From an uncultured Planctomycetia bacterium (lineage in GTDB: Bacteria; Planctomycetota; Phycisphaerae; Phycisphaerales; SM1A02), in NCBI GenBank assembly GCA_937919205.1, contig CALFOZ010000103.1, forward strand, positions 4,127-68,126: a DNA stretch of 64,000 nucleotides, given 5' to 3'. The stretch's first letter is position 1. Each line of letters opens with the position of its first letter. Shown one piece after another: positions 2,302-57,770 of the stretch. The notes beneath the pieces are model-generated. The model did not search any database. It had not been told where the DNA came from and worked only from the letters and a program-made list of their open reading frames with translations. The translations under genes and the position numbers were made by a program.

Positions 2302-2601
2302 ATGTCCACCAAATGCAAACATCAATCTTCTACGCAGGTGCATTCAATGACTGAGGCCGACATGGTTGACGCGCTTCGTGGCGCCATGTCCGCGGCGTTG
2401 GTCTTGGCATTGCCGTTGTTGGCAGTTGGACTTCTTGTTGGATTGATCTCTGGATTGATTCAGTCTCTCGCCAATGTGCAAGATGCCGCGGCGGCGTTCG
2501 CGCCACGGTTGATCGCGGTGGCGTTGGTGGCCATAGCGCTTGCCGGTTGGATGAGTTCAAAGGTGATCGACTTCGCGGTCACCATGATGGGGGGTGGCTA
2601 A
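2302..2601 (+). CDS. fliQ: Flagellar export gate protein FliQ; the probable true start is ATG 2347
   Basis: A small two-TM protein (ALVLALPLLAVGLLVGLISGLIQSLANVQDAAAAFAPRLIAVALV) lying between fliP and fliR. Starting at 2347 gives an FliQ-typical length of about 84 aa. Confidence 0.85.
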   Translation: MSTKCKHQSSTQVHSMTEADMVDALRGAMSAALVLALPLLAVGLLVGLISGLIQSLANVQDAAAAFAPRLIAVALVAIALAGWMSSKVIDFAVTMMGGG

Positions 2602-3333
2602 GTGAGTCTTTCTGAGATTGCCGTGGCGGGCGCGGCGCGAGCCGTCGGAGCGGCCATGTGCGCTCCGGCATTTACCATGATTCCATGGCGTTTTCGCTTG
2701 GCTTTCGCGGGCGCGGCGGGTTGGGCCGCGGCGCCAATCGCGGCGGGTGATTCAATGATCACCACAATTTCATTGCCGCAAATTGCGATTGAAATTTCCA
2801 TTGGCGCGGTGATTGGTTTGCTCGCCGCAATTTCTGTTGAGGCGCTTCGCGTGTGCGGCCGTGTGATTGGCGAGCAAATGGGGTTGTCGCTGGCGCAGAC
2901 ATACGACCCGGCGATTGATGGCGAGGCCAACGCCGCCGAAATGCTTTTTACATGGAGCGCAATCACTATCTTTGTGGCCGTTGGTGGAATTCAAACCATC
3001 GCCATTGCCGCCGCCGCAAGCGTGCGCACGTTGGCGCCGGGAACTTTTCTAGAAAGTGGATTTGCCAACTCGGTCGCGTTGTTGTTGGACTCGGCCATGT
3101 TGGTGGGATTTAAAGCATGCCTGCCAGTGGTCGCGGTGTTGGCGGCGGTGTCCGCCGTGGCCGCGTTGATAGTGCGCATTGTGCCTGGTTTTTCCACATT
3201 TTCCGCAGGATTTGGCGCGCGCGCCGTGGTTGGATTGATGGCCGCTTTTGCCGCATGCGCGGTGATATGGGCTTCTGAGAACGCGTTCATTCAACATTCG
3301 CTGGCGCAAATTACAAACGGAGTATCTCCATGA
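2602..3333 (+). CDS. fliR: Flagellar export gate protein FliR
   Basis: GTG start immediately after the fliQ stop. Polytopic membrane protein of 243 aa in the conserved fliR position. Confidence 0.8.
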   Translation: MSLSEIAVAGAARAVGAAMCAPAFTMIPWRFRLAFAGAAGWAAAPIAAGDSMITTISLPQIAIEISIGAVIGLLAAISVEALRVCGRVIGEQMGLSLAQTYDPAIDGEANAAEMLFTWSAITIFVAVGGIQTIAIAAAASVRTLAPGTFLESGFANSVALLLDSAMLVGFKACLPVVAVLAAVSAVAALIVRIVPGFSTFSAGFGARAVVGLMAAFAACAVIWASENAFIQHSLAQITNGVSP

Positions 3334-4043
3334 TGACCGGTGAATCCGCGGAACGCGTTCACCCGCCATCGCCCTCCAAGCGCGAGCAAGTTGTAGCCGA
3401 GGGTCATGGTCCAAGGGCAAGTTGGCTAGCTTCATTTCTTGGCATCGTGTTTTTCATCGCGCTCGCATCGGTGATCGCTCCCATGTGGATTGGTTCACTT
3501 GTCAGCGCCACAAAGAAAATATTCTTGCTCGCGCCAACTCAACAGCCCGCGCAATTATTCATAGACGCCATCACTCCAGCGTTGTGGATTGTTGTTGTGG
3601 CGCTTGTTGGCGCAATTTTGGCGCACATTGTTTCACATGGGGCATGGATACGAATGGGACCCTGGAAAATGCGCCAACGCAGAACGATTATGCGAGGGTT
3701 TCTGGCGGTGTTTGCCGGTGTTTTTGTGGCTATTGCCACCATGGGCGTCAGCCTGGCATTCGCCTGGCCATGGTTAAAAAATATTTCAAGTTGGAGTTCT
3801 GGATCGCTCACGGACGTGGTGTGGTCATCGCTTGGAATGATTGGCATGACCATGCTTGGCGCGGCGATCACTCTGTTCATTGCTTGCATCGCGCAACGCT
3901 TTAAGGCTCGCAACGCATTCGAGTCAAGCATTCGTTTAACGCGAGCGCAAGCACGCGAAGCCGCGCGTGAATCTGGAGAAGGCCGCGCGAATCGTCGTCC
4001 ACCAAGTCGTTCAGGCAAGCGTGCATCGGAGAATCAAAATTGA
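3330..4043 (+). CDS. flhB: FlhB, transmembrane domain only (237 aa); the C-terminal NPTH autocleavage domain is absent
   Basis: The N-terminus (ERVHPPSPSKREQVVAEGHGPRASWLAS) matches the FlhB pattern E-x-PT-x-K-x(5)-EG-x-x-x-S. Four TM helices follow, then an FlhB-linker-like stretch (RLTRAQAREAARESGEGR). The ORF then stops, overlapping the flhA TTG start as TTGA. Confidence 0.75.
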   Translation: MMTGESAERVHPPSPSKREQVVAEGHGPRASWLASFLGIVFFIALASVIAPMWIGSLVSATKKIFLLAPTQQPAQLFIDAITPALWIVVVALVGAILAHIVSHGAWIRMGPWKMRQRRTIMRGFLAVFAGVFVAIATMGVSLAFAWPWLKNISSWSSGSLTDVVWSSLGMIGMTMLGAAITLFIACIAQRFKARNAFESSIRLTRAQAREAARESGEGRANRRPPSRSGKRASENQN

Positions 4044-6166
4044 TTTCAAACTTGACCGACACGCAAAACAAACCAACTCTGCGAATGGAGTGGTTGGTGC
4101 CCGCGGCGTTCATCGCGCTTGTGGCGGTGTTGGTTGTGCCGCTTCCACCAATGGCCATGGATGCGCTGATCGCCATCAACTTCGCGCTCAGCGGATTGGT
4201 TCTTGCGACCGCGGCGAATATGCGAAAACCGCTTGATTTCAGCGTGTTTCCAGCGTTGGTGTTGGGCACCACGTTGTTGCGCCTGGGCATCAACATTGCC
4301 AGCACCCGTTTAATTTTGGGCATGGACGCCAGCACTCCCGAGGCGGGGCGCGCCGTGGCGGGATCGGTGATCGAGGCTTTTGGTGAAATCGCCGCGGGAA
4401 GAAATCCAATCGTAGGTTTGAGCGTGTTCGCTATGTTGGTGGTGGTGCAGTTTGTGGTGGTGACGCGCGGTTCGGTGCGCATGGGAGAAGTTTCCGCGCG
4501 CTTCGCGCTTGACGCGTTGCCCGGAAGACAAATGGCCATTGACGCGGATGTGGCATCGGGCGCCATCACTCCAGCGCAAGCCAGTGAGCGGCGCGATGTG
4601 GTTCTGCGCGAGGCGGATTTTCACGGCGCCATGGATGGCGCGGGACGATTCGTGCGCGGCGACGCGGTGGCGGGAATTGTGATTGTGTGTGTGAACATCT
4701 TGGGCGGATTTATGGTGGGGATGATCCAGAAAAACTGGTCCATTTCCGAATCACTGCGAGTGTTCACATTGCTGGCGGTTGGCGATGGATTAGTCACGCA
4801 AATCCCCGCGTTTTTAGTGGCAACCGCCGCCGGTCTGGTGGCCGCCAAAGCCGCCAGTGGCGAAACATTGGGCGCTGAAATTCCGCGTCAACTTGGCGCG
4901 CGGCCAGTGACGCTGTGGATTGTCGCGGGGTTGCTTGCGGTGCTTGCCATGACTCCGCTTCCAACTGTTCCATTGCTGGGCGCGTCTTTGTTGCTTGCTG
5001 GTGCCGCTTGGTGGATAGGCCGCGTGCAAGCGGCGGCCAAATACATCGAGACCCAGCATATTGCAACCAAGCAAATTGCCGATCAGTCCCAGCGATCAGC
5101 GTTGAGCGCTTGCGAGTCGCTTGAAGACGCCTTGGTGATCGAACCCATCAGCATTGATTTGGGTCTTGACTTGTTGATGCTGGCGCAAGAGGAGCAATCG
5201 GAATCGGGATTGCTGACGTTGGTGGCTGGTGTGCGCCGGCGTTTGGCGGTGGAACTTGGAGTTGTTGTTCCCTCGGTTCGAATTCGCGATGATCCAAATT
5301 TGCCCGGGGACACATATGTCATTCGCATGCGCGGCGCGGCGGTTGGTGGAGGAGCGCTTCGACCAGGGCAAATGTTGGTGATGGATCCCAAAGGCGGAGT
5401 GCCCAATGTGACTGGTGAATTGGCCACCGAGCCCGCGTTTGGTTTGCCTGCGATTTGGGTTGACGCAACGGCCGCCAAAAATATGGATGGCCAGGGCTTT
5501 GCCATCGCCGACGCCGGGGGCGTTCTTGCCACGCATTTATTGGAAGTTTTACGCAAAAAAGCATGGGAATTGATCACTCTTGAGGAGACCGCCAAGATGC
5601 TTGAGCGACTTCGAGCGCGCTCGCCAAACTTGGCGTCCATGTTGACGCCGCCCACATGGAGTTTGGATCGCATTCGTGGAATCCTTCAGGAACTTCTGCG
5701 CGAGGGCGTGGCCATTCGTGATATTGAAAAGATCGCGGAGTTGATGGTGTCCATGCCAGCAACGGCCTTGCCAGAACAGACCGTGGCCGTGGTTCGCAGT
5801 GTGATCTCGAGCGATGTCTGTGATCGATTGATCACACGTAACTCCATTGGTAAAAGAATTTTACACGCGGTTTGGATGGATGAATCCATGATTATTTCTA
5901 GTGGGGCCATCATCGCGGCTCAACGCAGTGTTGTGCCAGAGGCCGCCGCGGCGGAAAAATTGCTTCGATGTGTCGCCCCCGGCCTTCGTGATCTTCTACG
6001 CCGCGGCTTGCCCGCGGTTGTGGTCACCCCAAAGCATCTTCGCGGCGCTGTTAGCCGCGCGTTGCGGGGGCGTTTGGGCGATGTGTCGGTGATCGCGCGT
6101 GAGGAAATTCCTGAGGGCGTTGAATGTATCTTCGTGGAATCCGCGCGCCTTGAGGCAATTCAATGA
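4040..6166 (+). CDS. flhA: Flagellar export gate protein FlhA
   Basis: 708 aa. The N-terminal TM domain carries FlhA-type sequence (FPALVLGTTLLRLGINIASTRLIL, GRFVRGDAVAGIVI). The large cytoplasmic C-domain includes VVPSVRIRDD. Confidence 0.95.
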   Translation: MISNLTDTQNKPTLRMEWLVPAAFIALVAVLVVPLPPMAMDALIAINFALSGLVLATAANMRKPLDFSVFPALVLGTTLLRLGINIASTRLILGMDASTPEAGRAVAGSVIEAFGEIAAGRNPIVGLSVFAMLVVVQFVVVTRGSVRMGEVSARFALDALPGRQMAIDADVASGAITPAQASERRDVVLREADFHGAMDGAGRFVRGDAVAGIVIVCVNILGGFMVGMIQKNWSISESLRVFTLLAVGDGLVTQIPAFLVATAAGLVAAKAASGETLGAEIPRQLGARPVTLWIVAGLLAVLAMTPLPTVPLLGASLLLAGAAWWIGRVQAAAKYIETQHIATKQIADQSQRSALSACESLEDALVIEPISIDLGLDLLMLAQEEQSESGLLTLVAGVRRRLAVELGVVVPSVRIRDDPNLPGDTYVIRMRGAAVGGGALRPGQMLVMDPKGGVPNVTGELATEPAFGLPAIWVDATAAKNMDGQGFAIADAGGVLATHLLEVLRKKAWELITLEETAKMLERLRARSPNLASMLTPPTWSLDRIRGILQELLREGVAIRDIEKIAELMVSMPATALPEQTVAVVRSVISSDVCDRLITRNSIGKRILHAVWMDESMIISSGAIIAAQRSVVPEAAAAEKLLRCVAPGLRDLLRRGLPAVVVTPKHLRGAVSRALRGRLGDVSVIAREEIPEGVECIFVESARLEAIQ

Positions 6167-15228: not shown

Positions 15229-16863
15229 TTAAGGGCAGGAGCCGAAATGGCCCAGCAGTGTTCCTAAATCGGAGGCGTCCACAGTTCCATCGTAGTTCAG
15301 GTCGCCCGCGCATTGCGCGCAGATTCCAAATTCACCAAGCATGGATCCAATGTCACTGCTGTCCACAGATCCACTGTTGTTCAAATCACCAGGACAAGGC
15401 GGAGGCACTTGCGTTGCGGCAAAGGCCCTGGCAATTCCATAGCCAGTGATAAACAGCGGATCTGGATGCAGACCGTTGGAGTCGGAGCGCGACGCGGTTG
15501 CAAACAACGCGGCACGCAGAGAATTCACCGTGAAGTCTGGTCGCGCCTGCAAGATGCACGCGGCGGCGCCCGCCAATAACGGCGTACTTAAACTGGTTCC
15601 GCTCAAGCCACTGATACCGGATATGTTGGTGCTGTTCACTGTGGCGGTGCTTACGCCCATTGCCAAAAGTTCCGGCTTCACGCGTCCATCCACTGTTGGA
15701 CCATCGGAGGAAAAACTTGCGATGGCACCAGTGTTGTCAACCGCGCCACATGAAATCACTTGCAACGCGTCGGCTGGCGCGACCAATGTATTGGTGGCGG
15801 GATTGCTGTCGTGGCCTTCGTTGCCGGCGGCGGTGAAACAAATCAGTCCGTTGGCCGTGGCGATATTCACCGCGATTGTTGTCACGGCCGTCACGCCGTT
15901 CATGTCGTTCTGCGTGTACCAATCGATGTATCCCAGCGAACTTGTGGCGATGTCCGCGCCGTGCGCCTCCACAAATTCCAGGCCCGCCACATAAAAATCC
16001 TCCTCGATTGGAGTTTCAGTTGGAACGTCCTCGGTTTTGGCCAGGACAAATCGCGCCTCATACGCGGTGCCAATGAGTTGATTGGGTAAGTACGCCGCCA
16101 TGGTTCCCAAGATCCATGTTCCGTGCTTATGTTGCTCGGAGTCGTCGCCGGATTGAATGTCCGTGTTGTTGTCGTTCTTCACAAAGTCCCACTCGGCGAT
16201 CACTTGAAGCGGATGCTCGGCGCTTGCAAAAGCCTGATGCACGCGGCGAAAACCGCTGTCAAGAATGCCGATCACAATTCCAGCGCCGTGGTAGCCGGCA
16301 TCGTGAAGGCGGCGCACATCGATTTGGTCCACCTGCGTCGCGGCATAGCCGTACGCGTCGGCGGCGGCAAAGCTGGCCTGCGATGCAGTTGTCACGGACT
16401 CATTCTCTTCGCGCATGGCGGAGCGGCCACGTCGAACATGTTCCACGCGCGTGACATTGGATAATTTTTTCAGCGCAGTAATTTGCGCGGGCGTGGCCAG
16501 CGCGCTAACGGCGTTCAGCCAACGACTTTGCACGCGCACGGTTGCGCCCGTTGATGCGACCGCGTTGACACACTCTTGCGGCAGAGGCATGTCAAGAATG
16601 TCCACCACGCCAGGCAGTGTGCGCCGTTGCCACCGTCGCGCCACGGCCAATTCCGTGATGGCAGTATCGCAGGCTTCGCACGGCGCCACGCGCAGTTCTT
16701 CAAAGTACACCCACACTGGCAAGCGAGTTTCAGTTGGCGCGGCGCCCTGCACGGCGGTCAATGTGGTTCGCGTCGCGGTTGTTGGCACTTGCCGAAATGT
16801 AGATGTCTGTTGCACTGTCAACATGAGCGCGGTCATGGATGTCAAAGCAAGCAGGGGTGTCAT
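15229..16863 (-). CDS. Secreted subtilisin-family (S8) serine protease with two C-terminal dockerin-type repeats
   Basis: Signal peptide is present. Catalytic triad contexts are GILDSGF (Asp), HGTWILGTMAA (His) and SGTSLSTPLLAGAAA (Ser). The C-terminus carries GDLNNSGSVDSSDIGSML and GDLNYDGTVDASDLGTLL. Confidence 0.88.
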   Translation of the reverse strand: MTPLLALTSMTALMLTVQQTSTFRQVPTTATRTTLTAVQGAAPTETRLPVWVYFEELRVAPCEACDTAITELAVARRWQRRTLPGVVDILDMPLPQECVNAVASTGATVRVQSRWLNAVSALATPAQITALKKLSNVTRVEHVRRGRSAMREENESVTTASQASFAAADAYGYAATQVDQIDVRRLHDAGYHGAGIVIGILDSGFRRVHQAFASAEHPLQVIAEWDFVKNDNNTDIQSGDDSEQHKHGTWILGTMAAYLPNQLIGTAYEARFVLAKTEDVPTETPIEEDFYVAGLEFVEAHGADIATSSLGYIDWYTQNDMNGVTAVTTIAVNIATANGLICFTAAGNEGHDSNPATNTLVAPADALQVISCGAVDNTGAIASFSSDGPTVDGRVKPELLAMGVSTATVNSTNISGISGLSGTSLSTPLLAGAAACILQARPDFTVNSLRAALFATASRSDSNGLHPDPLFITGYGIARAFAATQVPPPCPGDLNNSGSVDSSDIGSMLGEFGICAQCAGDLNYDGTVDASDLGTLLGHFGSCP

Positions 16864-26377: not shown

Positions 26378-27724
26378 ATGGTCGCAGCAACAGATTCAAA
26401 AGGTGGCGTAGTCAACGGAGCAGTCAATGCAAACAAGGATGTCAAAGGTGATACGCGGGCAACTGCGACAGCGTCAGCTTCTGGAAATTCCAGAATTTCA
26501 TTAGGAAGTTCAACTTCCGCAGTGGCAACGGGCGCTGTGTCAGCTACAAATCAATCAGTGGCGAAACCAGCGACGGCGTCTGGCGCAACAAACGCAACTG
26601 AAAGGTCAAACATGTCCAAACCAGAAATTAAATCTGACATCAAGTTAGACAAGGCGCCAACCGCCAAGGAAACCGCCAAGGAATCCGTGGAGCAAAAAGC
26701 GAAGTTGAAAGCCATCGAGCAAGCCATGGGACAAATTGAAAAAGCCTACGGCAAGGGCAGCATCATGCGTCTTGATGGCGATTTACCGGAACCAATTCAA
26801 GGCATTTCCACTGGCGCGCTCAGTTTGGATCTTGCGCTGGGTGGTCGTGGTTTGCCGCGTGGACGAGTTGTAGAAATCTTTGGTCCAGAATCAAGTGGTA
26901 AAACAACGTTGGCGCTTACGGCAATCGCCAACACGCAACGCGAAGGCGGCGTGGCCGCGTTCATCGACGCGGAGCATGCGCTCGATCCATCTTGGGCCAA
27001 GCGTTTGGGCGTGAACCTGGATGAAATTTTAGTTTCGCAACCAGACACTGGCGAGCAAGCGCTTGAAATTTGCGAGATGTTGGTTCGATCCAACGCCGTC
27101 AACATGGTCGTCATCGATTCGGTGGCCGCGTTAATTCCGCGCGCTGAAATCGAAGGTGAAATGGGCGACAGCCACATGGGTTTGCAGGCGCGCCTTATGA
27201 GCCAAGCGTTGCGCAAGTTGACCGGCGCCATCGCCAAGAGCGATTGCATTGTGGTGTTCATCAATCAGTTGCGTGAGAAGATTGGCGTTATGTTTGGTAG
27301 CCCGGAAACAACCACCGGCGGTCGCGCGCTCAAGTTCTACGCCACGGTGCGCATTGATATTCGCCGCATTGGCCAGATCAAAGAGGGCGACCGAATTGTG
27401 GGCAATCGCATCAAGACCAAGGTGGTCAAGAATAAGATCGCGCCGCCGTTCCGCGAGGCGGAATTTGACATCATGTTTGATGAGGGTATTTCCACATCGG
27501 GCGATGTCCTGGACATGGCCACCGCGGATGAAGTGGTGGATAAGAGCGGTTCCTGGTTTAGCTACGGAGCCACTCGACTCGGTCAAGGCCGTGAAGGCGC
27601 CAAGTTGTTCCTGCGCCAGAATCCGGCGTTGCTCGATGAGATTCGAAAGGCCGTCATGGCGAAGCGTTTGGCTAATCCAAATGGAATTCCAACCAAGCCC
27701 AAGGATGAGTCCGACGACGAGTAA
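26378..27724 (+). CDS. recA: Recombinase RecA with a low-complexity N-terminal extension of about 105 aa
   Basis: The core begins at [26 protein letters not shown]. Walker A is [12 protein letters not shown]. Alternative start is ATG 26612 (MSKPEIK). Confidence 0.93.
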
Positions 27725-27812: not shown

Positions 27813-27840
27813 AGTCCGACATGGGTCGGACTTTTTATTT
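27813..27840. terminator. Bidirectional hairpin terminator between convergent recA and the gabD-like gene
   Basis: agtccgac-atgg-gtcggact (8-bp stem) followed by ttttattttt on the plus strand. It abuts the stop codon of the minus-strand dehydrogenase gene. Confidence 0.7.
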
Positions 27841-29277
27841 TTCCAGCGAGCGAAGCGCCAGATATTGCGTTGTGACATATTCCATCAAGCCCCAAGCGCC
27901 GCCTTCGCGTCCATATCCGCTGTATTTCACGCCGCCAAAGGGCGCGCGCGCGTTGCTGGGCGCGGCTTCATTCACCCCAATCACGCCGCACTGCAATTGT
28001 TGCGCCACGCCACGCGCGGATGCGTCGTTGCCGCCAAACACATAGCCCGCCAATCCAAACGGACTCGAATTTGCAATCTCAATGGCTTGGATTTCAGATG
28101 CCACGCTCATAATTGGAATCACCGGTCCAAATGTTTCTTCCTCAAAGCACAGCATGCTTGGATCGCAATTGGCAATCACGGTGGGCTCAAAGAAACGGTC
28201 GGGGCGGTCGGGGATTTCCTTTGTGCGACCGCCGCAGATCAACTTTGCGCCACGCGCCAGCGCGTCGGCAACATGCGCGCGAACTTTTTCAACGGCCGCA
28301 TCGTGAATCAGCGGACCTATTTGGCATCCCGCGTCTAGGCCTGGCGCAATCTTCAGTTGCGCGGCCGCCACGGCCACGCGCGCGGCAAATTCGCTGGCGA
28401 TGGATTCATGCACAAGAAATCTATTGGGGCAAATGCAAGTTTGCCCAGCGTTACGAAACTTGGATTGCACCGCGCCTTTGACAGCCAATTCAATATCGGC
28501 GTCTTGTAGAACAATAAATGCGGCGTGTCCTCCAAGCTCCATGGAACAGCGGACAATTTCCGGCGCGCACTGGCGCAAAAGCAAGCGGCCGGTCTCCGTG
28601 CTTCCGGTGAAACTGAGTTTGCGCACGCGGCCATCCATAAGCCAAGTTGTTGCGATTGCCTTCGCGTCGCCGATCAACACATGTAAACACTGTGGCGGCA
28701 GACCGCACTCCAAAAGAATTTCCGCAAGCGCGAAAGCCGAAAGCGGAGTCTCTTGCGCAGGCTTGGCAAGTTGCGCACACCCCGCAGCAAGGGCAGGCGC
28801 AACCTTGCGCGCCAACATAGCCAGCGGAAAATTCCACGGGGTGATTGCCGCGCACACGCCAACGGCCCGGTGCCTGACAACGCCGCGCAAGCCTGGTCGT
28901 TCCAGGGAAACTTCCATCTCGTTCAGCGCCTGAATTTCTTGCGCGGCGCTGGAAAAATAATCCGCGCTGTACTGCACCTCGCTGGCAGCCTCCGCAAGCG
29001 GCTTGCCACACTCTTGCGTGATGATGCGTGCCAGCGAATCTTTTCTGGCAACCACCATCGCGGCGGTTGCCCGCAACACATCGGCGCGTTGCGTGATTGG
29101 CGTGGCTTCCCACTCGGGTTGAAATTCAAATGCGCAGTTCAGCGCGCTCAACGCCTCGCTTGCGCCACACATGGGCACGCGCGCGATCACTTCGCCGCTG
29201 GCTGGATCGGCCACATCAATCGCGCCGCCAGAACCAATATCCGTCCATCGACCAGCGATCAAATTGCGTGTTTGCAT
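27835..29277 (-). CDS. gabD: Succinate-semialdehyde dehydrogenase-like NAD(P)+ aldehyde dehydrogenase
   Basis: ALDH motifs are present: FTGSTETGR, ELGGHAAFIV, a catalytic Cys in GQTCICPNR, and EETFGPV. The start is taken at MQTRNLIAGRW; the track start is 29295. Confidence 0.85.
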   Translation of the reverse strand: MQTRNLIAGRWTDIGSGGAIDVADPASGEVIARVPMCGASEALSALNCAFEFQPEWEATPITQRADVLRATAAMVVARKDSLARIITQECGKPLAEAASEVQYSADYFSSAAQEIQALNEMEVSLERPGLRGVVRHRAVGVCAAITPWNFPLAMLARKVAPALAAGCAQLAKPAQETPLSAFALAEILLECGLPPQCLHVLIGDAKAIATTWLMDGRVRKLSFTGSTETGRLLLRQCAPEIVRCSMELGGHAAFIVLQDADIELAVKGAVQSKFRNAGQTCICPNRFLVHESIASEFAARVAVAAAQLKIAPGLDAGCQIGPLIHDAAVEKVRAHVADALARGAKLICGGRTKEIPDRPDRFFEPTVIANCDPSMLCFEEETFGPVIPIMSVASEIQAIEIANSSPFGLAGYVFGGNDASARGVAQQLQCGVIGVNEAAPSNARAPFGGVKYSGYGREGGAWGLMEYVTTQYLALRSLEK

Positions 29278-29313
29278 TGTCCCCAAAGCGTACACTTATG
29301 TAAGAGGTAAACC

Positions 29314-29586
29314 ATGGCCAAAGCAATTGTTGATCCCAATGAACTGCGCCGATTCGCCGCCGACTTGAAGAAATTTAACAACGACGTGCAAACCCAAATG
29401 ACGCGCGTTGGCGCATCGCTTGGTGGCTTGCAACAAACTTGGCGCGACCAAGAGCAGGTGAAATTCTCAGAGGAGTTTGAGCAAACCATGCGCGCGTTGC
29501 AGAAATTTGTCAAAGCCTGCGACACGCATATCCCATTCCTGGTCCGCAAGGCCGAACGCATCGAGGAGTATCTCAACCAGCGTTGA
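29314..29586 (+). CDS. WXG100 (ESAT-6/EsxA-like) family protein, W-R-D variant
   Basis: 90 aa, with an AAGAGG Shine-Dalgarno 7 nt upstream. The predicted helix-turn-helix has a central W43. The segment IVDPNELRRFAADL...LQQTWRDQEQVKFSEEFEQTMRAL parallels the canonical WXG100 pattern (I-x-V-x-PEEL...W-x-G-x-A-x-x-x-F-x-x-x-F), with G replaced by D. Confidence 0.7.
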   Translation: MAKAIVDPNELRRFAADLKKFNNDVQTQMTRVGASLGGLQQTWRDQEQVKFSEEFEQTMRALQKFVKACDTHIPFLVRKAERIEEYLNQR

Positions 29587-29610
29587 TGCGTTTGCAGGCG
29601 CAACCACTTT

Positions 29611-30240
29611 ATGGATCCCCAGCAAGTCAATATTCAATCAGTCGAGGTATTGGAGCGAACGCGCGCCGCATTTATTCGTTGCCGCGAGGAGGTGGGGCTT
29701 GCCGTCGCCGAAGCGGACAGCGAAGTTGACCGACTCGTGATGTGGCTTCAAAACGATCGCATGATGTATTGGCGCGTCCGCATCAACCGTCTTCGCGAAG
29801 ACTTGAACAACGCCCGCAGTGCGCTGTTTCGCAAAGAGACGGTGACCAGTAGCAAGGATTCCAAGCCCAGCACCGTGGATGAGCGCAAGACATTGGCGCG
29901 GGTGAAGGCAATGCTGGAGGACGCGGAGCGGCGGGCCGTGCGGACAAAATCATGGGCGCAACATTTTCCGCGCGAGCAGGCGTTGTTCAAGGGCGCCACC
30001 TCAATGATCGCATCCATGCATGAGCGTGAATTACCCGCGGCAATCTTGGCGCTGGGAAGAATGGTTGTGGCCATCCAACGCTATGTTCGCGATGAGCCCC
30101 TGGATGTCTCCAAGATGTTCGAAGTGGAACTTGCCGCGGCCACCCAAGCCACAAATATGAAACGCGCGGTTGACAGCGCGCCACCGGATGGTTCCATTCA
30201 AGATTCATCCGCTCAAAGCAAGCAGGAGCCACTGCCATGA
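29611..30240 (+). CDS. Hypothetical helical protein (209 aa) of the WXG100/FtsK-like operon
   Basis: It lies 24 nt after the WXG100 gene and in the same reading frame. Its stop overlaps the next start as ATGA. The protein is charged and helix-prone, with a polar disordered tail. I recognise no family motif. Confidence 0.6.
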   Translation: MDPQQVNIQSVEVLERTRAAFIRCREEVGLAVAEADSEVDRLVMWLQNDRMMYWRVRINRLREDLNNARSALFRKETVTSSKDSKPSTVDERKTLARVKAMLEDAERRAVRTKSWAQHFPREQALFKGATSMIASMHERELPAAILALGRMVVAIQRYVRDEPLDVSKMFEVELAAATQATNMKRAVDSAPPDGSIQDSSAQSKQEPLP

Positions 30241-30467
30241 GTGTTGAAGGTGGTCGACAACGTCTGTACGGCGCGCTGAAGGAATTCCGCATGAAATGGG
30301 CTGAATCCGAGAGCCAATGGAAAGATCCCGCCTCCCAAATGCTGGCCAAAAAGTATGTTCAGCCACTTGAAGATGGCGGCAAGGCCGCGATTCAAGCCAT
30401 GGAATCCATGCGCGATTTGATCGCTCGAATTCGTAGCGAGTGCAATGATCCAAATTCCATTCAGTGA
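30237..30467 (+). CDS. Small (76 aa) helical protein with a W-K-D motif; possible WXG100-like partner
   Basis: Translationally coupled to the upstream gene (ATGA). ESQWKDPASQMLAKKYVQPL resembles the W-x-G/D turn and second helix of WXG100 proteins, but helix 1 is short. Confidence 0.5.
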   Translation: MSVEGGRQRLYGALKEFRMKWAESESQWKDPASQMLAKKYVQPLEDGGKAAIQAMESMRDLIARIRSECNDPNSIQ

Positions 30468-30512
30468 ACGCATTTGCAATCCCAACCCATTCCACTTGTA
30501 CGATAGATCGCA

Positions 30513-33500
30513 GTGACCAACTTGCCCACGGACTTTGAAAATCTTGATCCACTTGCGCGGTGCGCGTTGCGCTGGAAAGTTTTAAGTCAGGCTTGTCAAG
30601 CGCATGAGCAGTCGTTGGACTCCGCCGTGAAAGAAATCCTCGCTATGCGGCAGGCGGAATTATCTCGCCATCAACTTCGGATGAATCAGATCGATGCGCA
30701 CTATCAGACTTTGTCACAAGAATGCGAACAGGCGCACGAACAGCAGTTCAACGCCACCACCACCAAGGCGGCATTGGATGAGAAGAACATCAAAGATCAC
30801 GCGCGCGTGCAGGCCGAGGAGATTCAAAATAAATTCAAGGATGATCTGCATGCCAACAAACAACATTTGGAGGAGGCCATTTGGCTGGCGGAAAGTGTAT
30901 TAGAGACTGGCGAGGCCGCGCCCAAATTGGAATTTGAGGAGACGCGCGGCCGCCTGGTTCACCTTCAAGCCAATCTGGAGCAGACCATCTCCGCGGCGGT
31001 GTTTCAGCTGAAGCGCTATCGCCAATCGGAGCCGCCCATGCAACCCATGAACGCCAATCTTGTGCCTCGATCTTGCGAGGGAACATTGGCCACGCAGGTG
31101 GCTCTGGCCATGGAGGCGTTGGAGCGATTTAAAAAGTTGAAACTATCTGGCTTGTTTCGTGGACCCATATTGTTGGTGCCCGTGATTTTAATCACCGCAA
31201 CATTCGCTGGCGCCGCCGCGCTCGCGGGCGGGCGCGGCATGGTCTTGGCGGTGGCCGCCAGCGTTGGAATATTCTCCAGCGCCGCGGGCATTTGCGTGTT
31301 GTGGTTCATGGCGCGCAAGCAAGTGCGCCAGGCGTGGACTTCTATCGCCAACGCGCGGCAAGTGGGCGCGGAGGCGTTTGAGATCGCCATGAAATTTGCC
31401 CATGATCAGCGTGTTAGCGCCGCCGCGGCCGCGGTGAACACGCGTGATCGCGAAGTGCAATCTGCCAAGGAGAAATGGACTCCCATTATTGAAAGCCTGC
31501 AGGCCACAAGCCGCGCGTTGGTGGATCAGATTAAACAGGATCGCAAGTTGAAGTTAGACGCTGTAGAGAAAAATAAAATGAAAGTGCTTGATCAAGCGGG
31601 CAAGTCCGTGGCGGTCACGCGCAGTAAGGCGCTATTGGAAATGGAGAGCCAGCGCGATCAGGAAAAAAAACAAGCCGCCCAGAATCGTTTGCAGTGCGAC
31701 GCTCTGGAGCAGTCGCACGCCATGGTCCGCCATAACGCGTGGCAGAGTGCCCGCGACGAATTTTCCACATGGGCCAACGCCATTGAGCAAAGCGCGAATG
31801 TGTTGATGCCCGAGTGGCAGTCAGTCATGGATGCGGCCGCGCCCATGCAAAGTTCAGAAGCCTTGGCATTTGGATGGATCAAACTTGATGTATCCACCAT
31901 CGCCAACGGCGTTCCAAACGAGCCGCAGTGTCAGTGGTCAGATTCCAACCAAGCCGCGCCGGTGTGGAATATTCCCGCGTTGCGTCCGCTTCCAAATCTT
32001 CCATCGCTGTTGGTGGAGGCGCCCTTGCAAGGCCGTGAAAAAGCCCTCGAACTTCTTCAAACAGCCACGCTTCGATTGCTCACACAAATTCCGCCAGGCA
32101 AGGTTCGTTTCTATTTCTTTGATCCCGTCGGCCTTGGGCAAAGTTTCGCGGGCTTCATGCACCTTGCCGATGAAATGGAGTCGCTTGTAAGCGAGCGCAT
32201 CTGGAGCGAGCCGCGCCACATTGAGCAAAAGTTAACGGATCTCACGGAATATGTTGAGACCGTGATTCAGAAATTTCTACGCGATGAATTCGCCACCATC
32301 GCGCAATTTAATGAACAAGCTGGGGAGTTGGCGGAACCACTGCGTGTGATTGTGTTCGCGGATTTTCCAGCGGGGCTGACCGAGGCGGGTAGCAAACGTT
32401 TCGCAAGTTTGCTTCAATCGGGCGCCCGTTGCGGCGTGCACTTTGTGTTGTTGCGTGATCCAACCCAGCCACTTCCTGGATTAATCAAGGAGGAAGAATT
32501 GCTACAGCGATGCGCGCGCGTGCGCTGGAGTGGGGATCGATTTATTGTTGACGCGCCTGGATTGCTCGATGTTCCGTTTACGCCCGAGGCCATGCCCACT
32601 GCGAACATGTTGCAAACCATGTTGAAAAAAATTGGGCGCCAAGCCAAGTCCAGCTCCAAGGTGGAGGTTCCATTCCAAGCCATCGAGCCCAAGCTTGAGC
32701 AACGCTGGAGCAGTTCCAGCGCCAAGATTTTGCGCGTGCCTGTGGGGCGTAGTGGCGCCAACAAATTGCAGTCCATTGAAATTGGCGAGGGAACCCGCCA
32801 GCACGTGTTGCTTGCCGGCAAAACTGGCTCGGGTAAAAGCACGTTGCTTCACGCGCTGATCACCAACGTCGCGCTTTGGTATTCCCCCGACGAAGTTGAG
32901 TTGTGGTTGATCGATTTCAAGAAGGGCGTTGAGTTTAAGGCGTACGCGACCCACGGACTTCCCCATGCGCGCGCGGTTGCGGTGGAGAGCGACCGCGAAT
33001 TTGGTCTGAGCGTGTTGCAGGGACTCGACGCCGAATTGAAGCGCCGCGGTGATTTGTTTCGCTTGGCCGGCGTGCAAGATTTGGCCGCGTGGCGATTGCT
33101 AGGCAAGAAAGAATCCATGCCGCGCACGCTCTTGATCGTGGACGAGTTTCAAGAACTGTTCGTGGAAGAGGACAAGGTCGCGCAGGATTCATCGCTGTTG
33201 CTGGATCGATTGGTGCGCCAAGGCCGCGCGTTCGGCATGCATGTGATCCTGGGTTCGCAAACTTTGGGTGGAACGTACGCGCTTCCGCGCACCACCATGG
33301 GACAAATGGGAATTCGCATCGCCCTGCAATGCAACGAGGCCGACGCCGCCATGATCTTGTCCGACGACAACACCGCGGCGCGGTTGCTGTCGCGTCCGGG
33401 CGAGGCGATCTACAACGACGCCGGCGGTTTGATCGAGGGCAACAGTCCATTTCAAGTTGTCTGGCTCACGGATGCACAGCGTGACGAACGTGTTCGAGCG

Positions 33501-34394
33501 CTCGCCGAGTCCGCGCGCGCCAAGGGCATTGCCGATCGCAAGATGATTGTCTTTGACGGAACCGCGGCCGCTCGCATTGAACGTTGTGAACCTCTGCAAG
33601 AGTTGATCGCCAATCCGCCCACGACAGGCGTGCCTGCCCTGCAAATATTTGTCGGTGATCCAGTCGCCATCCGCAACGTCAGCGTCATCACTCTGCGGCG
33701 CCAATCGGGCGCAAACATCATTGTGATTGGTCAGCGCGAGGAGGTTGCCGCGGGTCTGAGCGTGGCGACTCTTGTGAGTTTCGCCGCGGTCACGCGCAAG
33801 ATTTCTGGCCGCGTGGTTTTGCTCGACGGCACCACGCCGGATTCGCTTACGGCTGGAGTGTTGCAGGCCACTATTGAAAAGCTCAAACTCAACGCCGAAG
33901 TTCCAAATTATCGCGACAGTGACGCGGCGGTTCTGCAGTTGGGCGAGGAAGTGGCGCGGCGCATCGCCGAAGGCCGGCAAGATCAACCTCCAATATTGCT
34001 CATGATCCATGGCCTGCAACGCTTTCGCACGTTGCGCAAAGACGAGGACGATTTCTCCATGTCGAGCGATGGCCCACCGAAACCTGACAAGGTGCTGGGC
34101 GCGATCCTTCGCGATGGTCCTGGCGTTGGCGTGCATGTATTCGCATGGGCTGACACGGCCCCAAGTTTACAGCGTTGCATTGATCGCAACGCGCTTCGTG
34201 AATTTGATTTCCGCGTGCTCATGCAGATGAGCGCCAATGATTCCAGCTATTTAATGGACACACCAACAGCCTCGCGCTTGGGAGCTGACCGCGCGTTGAT
34301 CTTCAGCGAGGAAAAAGGCGCGACCGAACGCTTTCGTCCTTTTGAAATCGCCAGCCAACAGGTGCTTGAAAAATTGTTCACTTCACATTCTTAA
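30513..34394 (+). CDS. Membrane-anchored FtsK/SpoIIIE-family ATPase (EssC/EccC-like), 1293 aa
   Basis: GTG start just after an in-frame TAG. TM hairpin at about aa 217-266 (nt 31161-31310). Canonical Walker A GKTGSGKST at aa 769-777 (nt 32817-32843) and Walker B LLIVDEF with D877-E878 (nt 33141-33146). FtsK/SpoIIIE-type context is present (WLIDFKKGVEF, GRAFGMHVILGSQ). Two additional FtsK-like domains have degenerate P-loops. Confidence 0.9.
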   Translation: MTNLPTDFENLDPLARCALRWKVLSQACQAHEQSLDSAVKEILAMRQAELSRHQLRMNQIDAHYQTLSQECEQAHEQQFNATTTKAALDEKNIKDHARVQAEEIQNKFKDDLHANKQHLEEAIWLAESVLETGEAAPKLEFEETRGRLVHLQANLEQTISAAVFQLKRYRQSEPPMQPMNANLVPRSCEGTLATQVALAMEALERFKKLKLSGLFRGPILLVPVILITATFAGAAALAGGRGMVLAVAASVGIFSSAAGICVLWFMARKQVRQAWTSIANARQVGAEAFEIAMKFAHDQRVSAAAAAVNTRDREVQSAKEKWTPIIESLQATSRALVDQIKQDRKLKLDAVEKNKMKVLDQAGKSVAVTRSKALLEMESQRDQEKKQAAQNRLQCDALEQSHAMVRHNAWQSARDEFSTWANAIEQSANVLMPEWQSVMDAAAPMQSSEALAFGWIKLDVSTIANGVPNEPQCQWSDSNQAAPVWNIPALRPLPNLPSLLVEAPLQGREKALELLQTATLRLLTQIPPGKVRFYFFDPVGLGQSFAGFMHLADEMESLVSERIWSEPRHIEQKLTDLTEYVETVIQKFLRDEFATIAQFNEQAGELAEPLRVIVFADFPAGLTEAGSKRFASLLQSGARCGVHFVLLRDPTQPLPGLIKEEELLQRCARVRWSGDRFIVDAPGLLDVPFTPEAMPTANMLQTMLKKIGRQAKSSSKVEVPFQAIEPKLEQRWSSSSAKILRVPVGRSGANKLQSIEIGEGTRQHVLLAGKTGSGKSTLLHALITNVALWYSPDEVELWLIDFKKGVEFKAYATHGLPHARAVAVESDREFGLSVLQGLDAELKRRGDLFRLAGVQDLAAWRLLGKKESMPRTLLIVDEFQELFVEEDKVAQDSSLLLDRLVRQGRAFGMHVILGSQTLGGTYALPRTTMGQMGIRIALQCNEADAAMILSDDNTAARLLSRPGEAIYNDAGGLIEGNSPFQVVWLTDAQRDERVRALAESARAKGIADRKMIVFDGTAAARIERCEPLQELIANPPTTGVPALQIFVGDPVAIRNVSVITLRRQSGANIIVIGQREEVAAGLSVATLVSFAAVTRKISGRVVLLDGTTPDSLTAGVLQATIEKLKLNAEVPNYRDSDAAVLQLGEEVARRIAEGRQDQPPILLMIHGLQRFRTLRKDEDDFSMSSDGPPKPDKVLGAILRDGPGVGVHVFAWADTAPSLQRCIDRNALREFDFRVLMQMSANDSSYLMDTPTASRLGADRALIFSEEKGATERFRPFEIASQQVLEKLFTSHS

Positions 34395-35592
34395 GCGCGG
34401 CGCCGGTGCGCGCGCGAAGTTGGCGCACACAATCACACACAATGGTGGCGGCCCGAACAATGTCCTCGCGCGTTGTGAATCTGGACAAACTAAATCGCAC
34501 GCTTGCATGGGCCAACACAGGCGCAATTCCCATGGCCAGCAACACGGGCGACGGATCAAGAGAGCCCGAACTACACGCCGCGCCCGCGCTGGCGCAAACG
34601 CCCGCATTGGAAAGCGCCAACACAATGGCCTCGGCCTCCAAATGCGCGAACGCGATATTGCTTGTGTTCCAAACTCTGGTTGCTCCAATCCCATTGATCA
34701 CCGCGTCTGGAATTGAAGTTTGAATGAGCCGCTCAAACTCATCGCGCAGTGTGTTGGGCGCGACACCGGCGGACTGCTTCAGCCATTGCCGCGCCGCGAG
34801 CGCGGCCACGCCAAAGCCAACAACGCCCGGAACATTTTCCGTGCCCGCGCGTCGATCACGCTCTTGCGGACCGCCCACAAGTTGCGGGGTGATTGGCGCG
34901 CCTCGGCGCGCGAACAACGCGCCCACGCCTTTGGGGCCATGCAATTTATGCGCGGTGAATGTGGCAAAATCAACCATAGCGTCAGCCACATCAAAGGGTT
35001 GGCGGCCCACACTTTGCGTGGCGTCGGTGTGAAACAACACGCCGCTCTCGCGGCATATTTCGCCCACTTCGCGCACGCACAGGGCAACCCCGGTCTCATT
35101 GTTCACCGACATCAGCGACACCAAGGCAATTTCATGCGCGTGTTTTTTTACCAGCAAGCGTAAGCGCTCCAAATGTAATTCGCCGTTGGTTGCATGCTCA
35201 ACCCAAATCACTTGACACACTCCATCGCTTTCAAGTTGCTCCGCCAAATTACGCACGGCAGAATGCTCCAATTTGCTTGTGACAATCAAGCGCCGCTTGG
35301 CATGTGCTTGCACAACGCCACGTAGCGCCAGAGATGCAGACTCCGTTCCACTGGAGCAAAAAATAATTTCGCGCGCGCCGGCTCCAACAAGTTGCGCCAC
35401 CTGTTCGCGGGCGTCTTCAACGTGGGCGCGGGCCGCTTGCCCAAATCGATGCACACTGCTGGGATTGCCCCAATTGTTCAATAGCGATTCACCCATGACA
35501 TGCGCAACTTCTGGAAGCGGCATGGTGGTGGCGTTGTTATCCAAGTAAATCACATCGCAAGTGTAGGGGGGCGTGCGCCAATCACCAATCAT
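34378..35592 (-). CDS. Cysteine desulfurase (NifS/IscS class V aminotransferase)
   Basis: IYLDNNATT at the N-terminus, PLP-lysine context (FTAHKLHGPKGVGALF) and active-site Cys loop (SAGAACSSG). Its 3' end overlaps the ATPase gene by 17 nt. Confidence 0.9.
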   Translation of the reverse strand: MIGDWRTPPYTCDVIYLDNNATTMPLPEVAHVMGESLLNNWGNPSSVHRFGQAARAHVEDAREQVAQLVGAGAREIIFCSSGTESASLALRGVVQAHAKRRLIVTSKLEHSAVRNLAEQLESDGVCQVIWVEHATNGELHLERLRLLVKKHAHEIALVSLMSVNNETGVALCVREVGEICRESGVLFHTDATQSVGRQPFDVADAMVDFATFTAHKLHGPKGVGALFARRGAPITPQLVGGPQERDRRAGTENVPGVVGFGVAALAARQWLKQSAGVAPNTLRDEFERLIQTSIPDAVINGIGATRVWNTSNIAFAHLEAEAIVLALSNAGVCASAGAACSSGSLDPSPVLLAMGIAPVLAHASVRFSLSRFTTREDIVRAATIVCDCVRQLRARTGAALKNVK

Positions 35593-35665
35593 TCAACAGG
35601 TGGCCGCGCGGCAAAAAAAATATCAATGCATATAAAAAATCCGACCACTTGGATCGGACTTTCAA

Positions 35666-35749
35666 TGCGGATGAGAGGAATCGAACCTCCATGGGTGTGA
35701 CCCCACAAGAACCTGAATCTTGCGCGTCTGCCAATTTCGCCACATCCGC
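35666..35749 (-). tRNA. tRNA-Leu (anticodon CAG)
   Basis: Hand-folded cloverleaf: acceptor GCGGATG/CATCCGC, anticodon stem CAAGA/TCTTG with loop TTCAGGT, long variable arm, T-loop TTCGATT. 84 nt, and CCA is not encoded. A hairpin plus T-run follows at about 35634-35662. Confidence 0.9.
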
Positions 35750-35800
35750 AAGGGCGTGGAGTGTACTTTGCCGCATTGCGCCTTGCATTTTCACTGGACA

Positions 35801-54326: not shown

Positions 54327-54400
54327 GGACTGTTGGCGCAGTTGGCTAGCGCGTCTCCATGACACGGAGAAGGTCACTGGTTCGAGCCCAGTACAGTCCA
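54327..54400 (+). tRNA. tRNA-Val (anticodon GAC)
   Basis: Hand-folded cloverleaf: acceptor GGACTGT/ACAGTCC, D stem GCGC/GCGC, anticodon stem TCTCC/GGAGA with loop ATGACAC, T stem ACTGG/CCAGT with TTCGAGC. 74 nt. Confidence 0.9.
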
Positions 54401-54453
54401 CTTTGATCGCTTGAAATGCTTTCTTATTTCCCGCAATTTCCAGGAACGACTCA

Positions 54454-57697: not shown

Positions 57698-57770
<73 letters not shown>

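Follow-up and report, generated by a model that had tools for sequence, protein, structure and literature searches.

Whether a bacterium with an outer membrane can possess a secretion machine of the type VII kind is the question raised by a four-gene locus in the genome of an uncultured planctomycete. To our knowledge, the definition of type VII secretion systems (T7SS) and all work on them are confined to Actinomycetota and Bacillota. The locus occupies positions 29314-34394 of a 64,000-nucleotide (nt) stretch of the contig CALFOZ010000103.1 (the whole stretch is hereafter called the window). A first-pass annotation, made from the sequence alone, had read it as a minimal T7SS-like module that comprises a WXG100-like protein, a helical orphan, a second small protein with a W-x-D motif and a membrane ATPase of the FtsK/SpoIIIE family. 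The exact 90-amino-acid (aa) WXG100-like protein (hereafter wxg90) and the exact 1293-aa ATPase are both on record in public assemblies. Because wxg90 is identical to GDY04610.1, which comes from a lake metagenome-assembled genome (MAG) of a "Phycisphaerae bacterium" and was seen on 402 contigs, the host, as judged from this identity, is a freshwater planctomycete of the Phycisphaerae, in line with the initial impression of a genome of the Planctomycetes-Verrucomicrobia-Chlamydiae (PVC) type. The envelope of Planctomycetota, as known from published cell biology, is of the Gram-negative type. Sequence comparison confirms that the four genes form a real unit, hereafter the cassette, that is conserved across the phylum Planctomycetota. 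With regard to the function of this unit, the reading that we favor, with a probability of about 40%, is an inner-membrane, T7SS-like translocase for helical-hairpin proteins.

The four genes and their products

All four genes are located on the forward strand and are tightly packed. The gene for wxg90 (29314-29586) is separated by 24 nt from that for a 209-aa protein (p209; 29611-30240), the stop codon of p209 is overlapped by the ATG of the gene for a 76-aa protein (p76; 30237-30467) in a 4-nt ATGA, and a 45-nt gap precedes the ATPase gene (30513-34394; 1293 aa), which starts with GTG rather than with the ATG of the three small genes. This arrangement in the list of open reading frames (ORFs) exactly matches the initial description.

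The proposed WXG100 affinity of wxg90 is borne out by profile searches. The protein matches the Pfam WXG100 family PF06013 over residues 6-84 of 90 with 45.7 bits (gathering cut-off, 27.3; E 8e-12), its score against the NCBIfam model TIGR03930 (WXG100_ESAT6; 38.7 bits) is under the subfamily cut-off of 44.85, and its orthologs carry the PGAP name "WXG100 family type VII secretion target". Judged by these profiles, wxg90 is a member of the WXG100 superfamily, and the profile match suggests a helix-turn-helix hairpin. The length of the protein is exactly 90 aa in 31/31 aligned orthologs, with a mean column identity of 67%. In the turn motif W43-R44-D45, the tryptophan and the aspartate are invariant and the arginine is nearly so, which differs from W-x-G; at the C-terminus, Y86-L87-x-Q89(-R90) are invariant or nearly so. 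Inspected by eye, the alignment of the 31 orthologs fits neither YxxxD/E nor a complete HxxxD/ExxhxxxH pattern. The maximum Kyte-Doolittle hydrophobicity of wxg90 is 0.49 in a 19-residue window, and a sequence scan detected no signal peptide or hydrophobic segment in wxg90, p209 or p76.

The W-x-D motif noticed previously in p76 is conserved: among 41 aligned orthologs, the conserved residues are W21, W28-x-D30 and C69. The link to the WXG100 proteins is weak, although the different searches agree on it. PF06013 is matched by 3 of the 41 orthologs (best E 6e-6), the p76 hidden Markov model (HMM) pulls in all wxg90 proteins after two iterations, and when p76 and the wxg90 family are compared directly by hhalign, their W-x-D motifs are aligned with E 0.003 and a probability of only 10%. 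The protein can be considered a weak candidate for a divergent WXG100-like protein.

The remaining small protein, p209, had been described as a helical orphan, and of this description the first word stands and the second does not. The AlphaFold2 model (mean pLDDT, 87.6; helices at residues 3-79, 89-159 and 166-186) predicts a long antiparallel two-helix hairpin, with helices of ~75 residues and a length of ~110 Å, followed by a short helix. The conserved core in ortholog alignments encompasses approximately residues 1-165, including W45, W54 and Y158, and is followed by a variable, acidic and proline-rich tail of low complexity that is predicted to be disordered. Searches with the single protein and with 40 orthologs retrieved no Pfam or NCBIfam family, and a profile search found no sequence match in the PDB; nevertheless, p209 belongs, as judged by sequence searches, to a large conserved family of 2,792 clusters (50% identity) at E <= 1e-3, and of 888 clusters at E <= 1e-30. 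This hairpin family of ~2,800 clusters merits its own Pfam or NCBIfam model. When compared with the PDB by Foldseek, the p209 model matches generic coiled-coil hairpins only (best E 0.02), among which there is a weak resemblance to the HP0958/CT398 hairpins (TM, 0.35-0.44; E at least 0.08). Sequence and fold searches lend no support to p209 being a protein of the LXG, EspB, PE/PPE or EspG type. The invariant Y158 was considered as part of a YxxxD/E signal and rejected, the acidic residue at +4 not being conserved. Profile scans, the alignment and the model revealed no toxin or enzyme domain in the window p209.

In a subset of loci of the Phycisphaerae/Tepidisphaerales type, p209 is present in a longer form (~350 aa) with a C-terminal Imm33-like domain (PF24719). 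This domain is matched in 8 of 10 long forms with E <= 5e-5, 6 of these 8 clearly above the gathering score (L016:8473-9534, L017:8244-9323, L026:8569-9639, L030:8463-9527, L032:1496-2548, L037:4872-5960, L018 and L082). The fusion thus joins an immunity-type domain to what would be a T7-like adaptor or cargo.

The largest product of the cassette was correctly identified as a membrane ATPase of the FtsK/SpoIIIE family: it matches PF01580 with 110.9 bits and contains two membrane helices. Its top NCBIfam matches are TIGR03924 (EccCa; 6.4e-33), TIGR03928 (EssC) and TIGR03925 (EccCb), all with scores below the cut-offs for the T7SS equivalogs (114 vs 509, 102 vs 778 and 79 vs 347 bits for EccCa, EssC and EccCb, respectively), whereas the FtsK equivalog NF007615 is matched with 19 bits against a cut-off of 1566. 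The sequence-profile matches in the PDB are EccC (4nh0; 6.8e-34), EccC5 (7np7; 8.8e-28), YukB (9qks; 1.8e-24) and FtsK (8.5e-10). The AlphaFold2 model of the 854-residue cytoplasmic part (residues 440-1293; pLDDT, 82.3) consists of three alpha/beta domains and, in Foldseek, is collinear over its entire length with the D1-D3 domains of Thermomonospora curvata EccC (4nh0; E 1.5e-33, 882 columns). The next matches are two-domain EccC/EssC structures, including 4n1a with a bound substrate signal peptide, and FtsK follows at ~1e-16. Both the sequence and the predicted fold support a closer affinity of this ATPase to the T7SS proteins EccC and EssC than to FtsK.

From the N-terminus, residues 1-210 (30513-31142; this and all following segments of the ATPase are on the forward strand) are probably cytoplasmic and mostly helical or coiled-coil, as suggested by the sequence, and include the motif EEAIWLAESVLETGE (residues ~121-135); W124, A126 and E131 are invariant in the ortholog alignment. 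Two hydrophobic helices at residues 217-268 (31161-31316) apparently form a membrane hairpin; hydropathy windows above 1.6 occur at 209-249 only, the hydrophobic stretch as a whole is confined to about residues 209-268, and the two helices are strictly conserved in the planctomycete orthologs. The loop between them consists of a few residues, so that both flanks should be cytoplasmic, with no periplasmic domain in the ATPase. A second cytoplasmic region that is likely to be a coiled coil or stalk follows at residues ~270-440 (31323-31832). In the first ATPase-like domain (residues ~484-714; 31962-32654), APLQGREKA is found at the P-loop position and VFADFP at the Walker B position. The second domain (~727-1004; 32691-33524) contains the only Walker A (GKTGSGKS, residues 769-776; 32817-32840) and the only Walker B (LLIVDE, residues 873-878, in the stretch LLIVDEFQ at 33129-33152) detected by a motif scan of the protein. 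In the third domain (~1012-1293; 33546-34391), GANIIVIGQRE stands in place of Walker A, and ILLMIHGLQRF in place of Walker B. The non-canonical sequences at the Walker positions of domains 1 and 3 are themselves conserved in the alignment, and in domain 3, G1066 and G1073 are invariant, with Q1074, R1075 and E1076 nearly so. Judged by these motifs, domain 2 is the sole catalytically intact ATPase domain, and domain 3 may be considered a candidate docking domain for the C-termini of the small proteins. No FHA domain and no FtsK gamma or winged-helix domain was matched by Pfam profiles, which likewise detected no domain of any kind in residues 1-210 and no YukD match in the small proteins.

The register of the three domains relative to EccC differs between methods. 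By hhalign against an EccC alignment, D1 of EccC is the counterpart of the active domain and D2 that of the last domain (probability, 99.5%), whereas in the collinear Foldseek match to 4nh0, the last domain corresponds to D3. Because hhalign puts the active domain on EccC D1, the domain that precedes it would be at the position of the degenerate DUF domain of EccC, which is itself a degenerate ATPase domain (PMC11154593). Whichever register is right, the protein has three ATPase-like folds, not four. With one domain fewer, a single Walker A motif and long coiled coils that flank the membrane hairpin, it is not a canonical EccC or EssC.

Distribution of the cassette and its relatives

In the protein database, full-length orthologs of the ATPase come from planctomycete sources only, down to 38% identity; the matches below this level are EccC-type proteins that align in the P-loop domain only. 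A scan of one genome per species yielded at least 494 relatives, of which the best 80 all belong to Planctomycetota and span Planctomycetaceae, Pirellulales, Gemmatales, Isosphaeraceae, Phycisphaerales, Tepidisphaerales and Sedimentisphaerales. These best 80 relatives include the cultured Singulisphaera sp. Ch08, which carries the whole cassette; the p209 hairpin protein is also present in the cultured Singulisphaera members S. acidiphila, GP187 and PoT. Among 65 independent loci with at least 1.5 kb of upstream sequence, which were searched with HMMs of the small proteins, 59 encode wxg90, p209, p76 and the ATPase in this order on the same strand; 4 encode the ATPase alone and 2 encode partial sets. 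This conserved order, together with the tight or overlapping spacing of the genes, suggests that the genes are co-translated and that their products are physical partners. The conditions under which the first-pass annotation would have been refuted, namely, a lack of a significant WXG100 profile hit for wxg90 and a lack of conservation of the quartet, do not apply.

In the four loci with an orthologous ATPase alone (L039, L045, L055 and L072), no wxg90, p209 or p76 gene was found within 3 kb upstream, and in two of these (L045 and L055), an ORF of ~950-1000 aa is located directly upstream of the ATPase gene. The partial sets of small genes are those of L030 and L036.

The comparison of gene neighborhoods that the first-pass annotation had proposed revealed no further constant members. 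All-vs-all clustering of the flanking ORFs of 86 loci yielded no fifth family in more than 9 of these within +/-10 kb. Over the same range, no EccB, EccD, EccE, MycP, EsaA, EssA, EssB or YukD gene and no gene for an outer-membrane protein is conserved in linkage to the cassette, which agrees with the initial remark that known T7SS components are lacking next to the window copy. On three contigs that carry the quartet, with ATPases 67%, 40% and 38% identical to the window protein, the flanks are entirely different in two, and the RecA-Aldedh ... NifS-RpoD-DnaG flanks are kept in the relative with 67% identity (L001).

A quick neighbor-joining tree of 78 ATPases roughly tracks taxonomy, with Phycisphaerae-type clades apart from Planctomycetia-type clades; the taxon labels of MAGs being imperfect, the exceptions may come from unreliable labels. 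Within Planctomycetota, the cassette is apparently a vertically inherited core locus. Conservation is unevenly distributed among its parts, as measured by the median identity to the window protein in 61 loci. The most conserved part is the active ATPase domain (domain 2; 69%), followed by wxg90 (56%), ATPase domains 1 (45%) and 3 (42%), p76 (29%), p209 (28%) and the coiled coils of the ATPase (25-27%; 27% for the N-terminal and 25% for the second one), compared with 42% for the full-length ATPase.

Outside the phylum, when plasmids were searched by tblastn with the three-domain region of the ATPase, four hits covered at least 85% of the query, from Rhodococcus, Caballeronia, Deinococcus and Helicobacter. 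On the conjugative plasmid of Rhodococcus sp. AH-ZY2 (L088, 5456-10886), the same four families are encoded in a different order. The 1322-aa ATPase contains a single Walker A, and its homology extends over residues 335-1287 (29% identity; E 5e-111). It is followed by a 314-aa p209 homolog (hhalign probability against the p209 family, 90.7%; E 1.3e-6), by a protein of 73 aa and by a WXG100 protein of 87 aa in which the motif reads W-K-D. Genes for TerD and DUF475 (TerC-like) adjoin this cluster, and its Gram-positive host carries the atypical type alongside any canonical ESX. On plasmid pSBC2-5 of Caballeronia sp. SBC2 (L087, 3549-16217), the cluster consists of a WXG100 protein (W-Q-D), proteins of 436, 113 and 76 aa and a 927-aa ATPase without a membrane helix; the match of the 436-aa protein to the p209 profile is marginal (E 0.003; probability, 11%). 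This cluster is set among genes for VWA, DUF1887 CARF, VWA, PP2C phosphatase, Ser/Thr kinase and AAA proteins, a neighborhood that looks like a conflict or signaling system rather than a secretion system.

The plasmid pNHP190012_1 of Helicobacter sp. NHP19-012 (L090, 4128-8530) encodes, in this order, an 89-aa WXG100 protein (W-G-D), a protein of 340 aa whose C-terminal part is a WHH nuclease toxin, a SUKH/SMI1 immunity protein, a 77-aa protein and an 823-aa ATPase of the three-domain type, in which one Walker A but no clear membrane helix is recognized. The slot that is held by p209 in planctomycetes is filled here by a polymorphic toxin; compared with the p209 profile, the N-terminus of this toxin gives no significant match (E 0.17). 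Such a toxin needs export, and therefore at least some members of the subfamily handle exported cargo. The cassette is part of a wider subfamily, which includes mobile members, soluble members and at least one that deals with a polymorphic toxin.

Export or housekeeping

In the translocase reading, we infer a succession of steps that comprises multimerization, formation of a hexameric channel, assembly of the small proteins, docking on domain 3 and export. The ATPase would multimerize, as a hexamer by analogy with EccC and EssC, such that the membrane hairpins line a channel and the coiled-coil stalk holds a cytoplasmic ring of three stacked FtsK-like domains, with ATP hydrolyzed by the middle domain only. 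The wxg90 and p76 proteins would form helical-hairpin dimers, possibly as a ternary bundle along the hairpin of p209, and this complex would dock on the degenerate last ATPase domain through invariant C-terminal residues; the invariant C-terminal tail of wxg90 is as expected of a docking signal. The docked complex, with neither a Sec nor a Tat signal, would then be pushed in the folded state through the inner membrane into the periplasm. Since the cassette encodes nothing that spans the outer membrane, the complex would end up in the periplasm or on the inner side of the envelope, unless an unlinked factor of the outer membrane takes part. The translocase reading is favored by the WXG100 membership of wxg90, by the EccC-like sequence and fold of the ATPase, by its strictly conserved membrane helices, by the lack of signal sequences in the three small proteins and by the conserved gene order, and Zhang et al. 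(2012) likewise read the group as a version of the T7SS.

Several observations weigh against export. No T7SS accessory gene and no outer-membrane protein gene is conserved beside the cassette; the ATPase scores far under the T7SS equivalog cut-offs, has one ATPase-like domain fewer than EccC and EssC and contains a single Walker A; and wxg90 has W-R-D in place of the canonical W-x-G and no conserved YxxxD/E signal. Furthermore, wxg90 is more conserved than the whole ATPase (56% vs 42% median identity) and, given also the apparent vertical inheritance of the cassette among housekeeping genes, a core cellular component fits better than a secreted effector. Finally, several plasmid homologs (Caballeronia, Deinococcus and probably Helicobacter) lack membrane helices, so that membrane translocation is not obligatory for this ATPase subfamily.

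These points lead to the alternative that survives best, which we deem possible while leaning against it, namely, that the cassette encodes a non-secretory housekeeping machine; a non-secretory use had been envisaged in the first-pass annotation as well. Under this scenario, the membrane-tethered ATPase would assemble, remodel or extract helical-bundle complexes on the cytoplasmic face, with no export, and the WXG-like hairpins, together with p209, would serve it permanently as adaptors, regulators or structural partners, possibly in a planctomycete-wide process such as envelope or membrane organization or FtsZ-less division. Such a role is in keeping with the fixed length and high column identity of wxg90, with an ATPase tree that broadly tracks class and order labels, with the flanks retained at 67% ATPase identity, with the lack of a periplasmic domain between the closely spaced membrane helices, with the lack of a conserved outer-membrane or accessory partner and with the existence of helix-less homologs. 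On the other side of the balance, all close relatives of the ATPase that have been characterized (EccC, EssC and YukB) translocate proteins, the membrane hairpin is retained throughout the phylum, and the toxin-immunity pair of the Helicobacter plasmid implies export in one relative. Moreover, EsxA, the WXG100 protein of T7SSb, is described as both highly conserved and secreted (PMC13355648), and therefore the high conservation of wxg90 does not exclude export.

It is improbable, in our assessment, that the cassette is a domesticated or mobile conflict system, that is, a toxin-delivery or defense module with p209 as an effector or immunity-linked cargo. This possibility derives its appeal from the relatives outside the phylum and from the literature, in which Zhang et al. 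(2012) interpreted related loci as "mobile versions of T7SS". The Helicobacter plasmid combines WXG100, WHH toxin, SUKH immunity and 77-aa genes with the ATPase gene, the Caballeronia cassette lies among CARF, VWA, PP2C and Ser/Thr-kinase genes, the Rhodococcus copy adjoins TerD and DUF475 genes, and the Imm33-like domain is present in most of the long forms of p209. The window copy itself offers little that would fit: p209 has a low-complexity tail and no toxin or enzyme domain, no immunity gene is adjacent, no mobile-element genes flank the copy, and no anomaly of base composition was found across the cassette. The presence of the cassette in all sampled orders of the phylum, with a roughly vertical phylogeny, likewise speaks against such a role, and in a comparison with the PADLOC defense models, the ATPase resembles SspH and mad8 only generically, in the FtsK domain, and the small proteins have no match.

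Least probable is a DNA translocase of the FtsK/SpoIIIE/TraB type, with the small proteins as accessories of chromosome segregation or DNA transfer: the FtsK_SpoIIIE domain and the public annotation of orthologs as "cell division protein FtsK" or "DNA segregation ATPase" suggest it, and it is contradicted by the negligible score against the FtsK equivalog, by the lack of a detected gamma or winged-helix domain, by the advantage of EccC over FtsK in sequence (6.8e-34 vs 8.5e-10) as well as in fold (1.5e-33 vs ~1e-16), by the lack of a P-loop in two of the three ATPase-like domains and by the linkage to WXG100 genes.

The translocase reading can be extended to a more specific proposal, which we regard as rather unlikely, that the cassette is an autonomous minimal T7SS of a fourth branch, in which the ATPase serves as both motor and channel and delivers a ternary hairpin bundle to the large periplasm of planctomycetes, and which was domesticated from plasmid toxin-handling relatives for a housekeeping function tied to the envelope and cell biology of planctomycetes and vertically inherited throughout the phylum. 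If true, a functional T7SS-type pathway would be described for the first time in a bacterium that has an outer membrane, and the irreducible T7 core would consist of one active ATPase domain, without EccB/D/E or EssA/B. The ATPase, which has three domains, a single active site and no genes for accessory membrane proteins in its vicinity, is simpler than any studied T7SS motor. If the cassette does export, it would set the minimal needs of T7-type translocation and raise the issue of the role of a folded-hairpin exporter in the periplasm; if it does not, a WXG100-EccC partnership would have a non-secretory function, which is relevant to the debated intracellular roles of Esx proteins. As cultured Singulisphaera species carry the cassette, experiments are possible where a carrier is genetically tractable.

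Genomic surroundings and comparison with known systems

The window copy is flanked, as initially described, by housekeeping genes on the opposite strand, which were assigned to families via the orthologous locus L001: an aldehyde dehydrogenase ORF at 27835-29295 and a class-V aminotransferase/NifS-like ORF at 34378-35592. The GTG of the divergent aldehyde dehydrogenase ORF and the wxg90 ATG are separated by 18 nt only (29295-29314), and the convergent NifS-like gene shares its last 17 nt with the end of the ATPase gene (34378-34394). A promoter and terminator scan of 28800-34900 gave a site count not above that of shuffled sequence; no sigma-70-like promoter or terminator stands out around the cassette, so that its promoter is probably located within neighboring coding sequence.

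Elsewhere in the window, the flagellar export gate reported earlier is readily recognized (FliO, FliP, FliR, FlhB and FlhA at 1055-6166). The FlhB-like ORF of this operon (3330-4043, forward strand) encodes only 237 aa and matches the N-terminal two thirds of the Bac_export_2 profile only (positions 2-224 of 335); its cytoplasmic autocleavage domain may be missing or separately encoded. An exported BamD-like protein had been reported as well; it was not among the 20 window ORFs that were scanned, and no further search for BamD was made. A subtilase (Peptidase_S8; 3.8e-39) is encoded at 15229-16863 on the reverse strand, 13 kb upstream of the cassette. Mycosins are S8 proteases; this subtilase gene is distant, on the strand opposite to the cassette and not conserved with it in other loci. 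The RecA protein encoded at 26378-27724 (forward strand; 448 aa) has an N-terminal extension of ~100 residues, of low complexity and rich in Ala, Ser, Thr and Lys, ahead of the canonical core, and its ortholog in L001 has 450 aa. The SecA protein encoded at 57814-61872 (reverse strand) is unusually long (1351 aa), with a DEAD-like domain split by a large insertion, such that the Pfam match consists of two stretches over residues 152-530. A tRNA-Leu(CAG) gene (35665-35750, reverse strand) is located between the NifS-like gene and rpoD; genes for tRNA-Val(GAC) (54327-54401, forward strand) and tRNA-Lys(CTT) (57698-57770, reverse strand) are found further downstream.

In the T7SS literature, the published account of pairs of this general kind amounts to a single footnote and a handful of sentences in reviews. 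The WXG100 proteins were described as almost confined to Actinobacteria and Firmicutes, with a few in Chloroflexi (Poulsen et al. 2014), and the T7SSa-T7SSj classification (Garrett, Higginson & Palmer 2024; PMC11217815) recognizes ten subtypes, in Actinomycetota and Bacillota only and in no diderm lineage with lipopolysaccharide (LPS). The relevant passage of a 2023 review (PMC10765036), which cites Sutcliffe 2011 and Unnikrishnan 2017, describes Gram-negative pairs of WXG100 and FtsK/SpoIIIE genes as "not yet confirmed functionally as secretion systems". A literature search for WXG or ESAT-6 in combination with planctomycetes retrieved mentions only and no study of the system. Papers on P. 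limnophila refer, in the passages concerned, to "only one FtsK homolog", and the text supplements of the transposon sequencing (Tn-seq) paper on this species contain no mention of SpoIIIE, FtsK, WXG100 or ESAT-6.

The cassette resembles T7SSa (ESX) in that genes for small WXG100 proteins adjoin that of a membrane-anchored ATPase of the FtsK/SpoIIIE family whose N-terminal region contains two membrane helices, in that EccC provides the best matches of the ATPase in both sequence and fold and in the presence of two small hairpin genes per locus. Unlike T7SSa, it has no EccB/D/E or mycosin conserved nearby; the ATPase contains three ATPase-like domains with one Walker A, compared with the DUF plus three domains of EccC, and a coiled coil of 210 aa before and one of 170 aa after the membrane helices; W-R-D replaces W-x-G, with no conserved YxxxD/E; and the two small genes, bicistronic in ESX, are separated by p209. 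With T7SSb (Ess/Yuk) and T7SSc-j, the cassette shares the core of a WXG100 protein and an EssC-type ATPase and, with some T7SSb-j variants, also the presence of two WXG100 genes and an ATPase without FHA domains. The closest variant in gene count is T7SSg, which is described as "relatively simple" and consists of two WXG100 proteins, a ubiquitin-like protein, the ATPase and TsgL (PMC11217815). The cassette differs from T7SSb-j in its diderm host, in the lack of a YukD/EsaB-like ubiquitin-fold gene, an EssB-type pseudokinase and EsaA and in an ATPase with one ATPase-like domain fewer, and from T7SSb in particular by the lack of FHA domains in the ATPase.

In layout only, the cassette is similar to the LXG toxin-Lap1-Lap2 complexes of T7SSb (PMC10801868), in which a longer helical protein and two small hairpins are encoded next to a T7SS-type ATPase gene. 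In the Helicobacter plasmid relative, the middle gene encodes a real polymorphic toxin; p209 has no toxin domain and matches neither LXG nor any solved T7SS substrate in sequence or fold. With the FtsK/SpoIIIE DNA translocases, the cassette ATPase shares the P-loop motor fold of the FtsK-HerA superfamily; it differs from them in a similarity far weaker than that to EccC, in the lack of a gamma domain, in its tandem degenerate domains and in its WXG100 partners.

The closest precedent appears in a footnote of Zhang et al. (2012), which reports, for planctomycetes as well as other Gram-negative bacteria, solo-WXG genes accompanied by a distinct YueA-like ATPase of three FtsK/HerA domains, "only the middle one active". 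The WXG100/ATPase pair is therefore already known, systems of this kind having been noted for bacteria with two membranes in 2011-2012. The cassette agrees with this description in its stand-alone WXG100 gene that adjoins the ATPase gene, in its planctomycete host, in the three FtsK-like domains with Walker A and B motifs in the middle one only and in the existence of plasmid-borne relatives. It goes beyond the description in the inclusion of p209 and a second small protein and in the coiled-coil/membrane-hairpin/coiled-coil N-terminus of the ATPase. To the best of our knowledge, the unit of four genes, the families of p209 and p76, this architecture, the specific plasmid relatives and the phylum-wide, apparently vertical conservation are new. 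Unlike the mobile version of the T7SS envisaged by Zhang et al., the planctomycete cassette appears to behave as a vertically inherited core locus.

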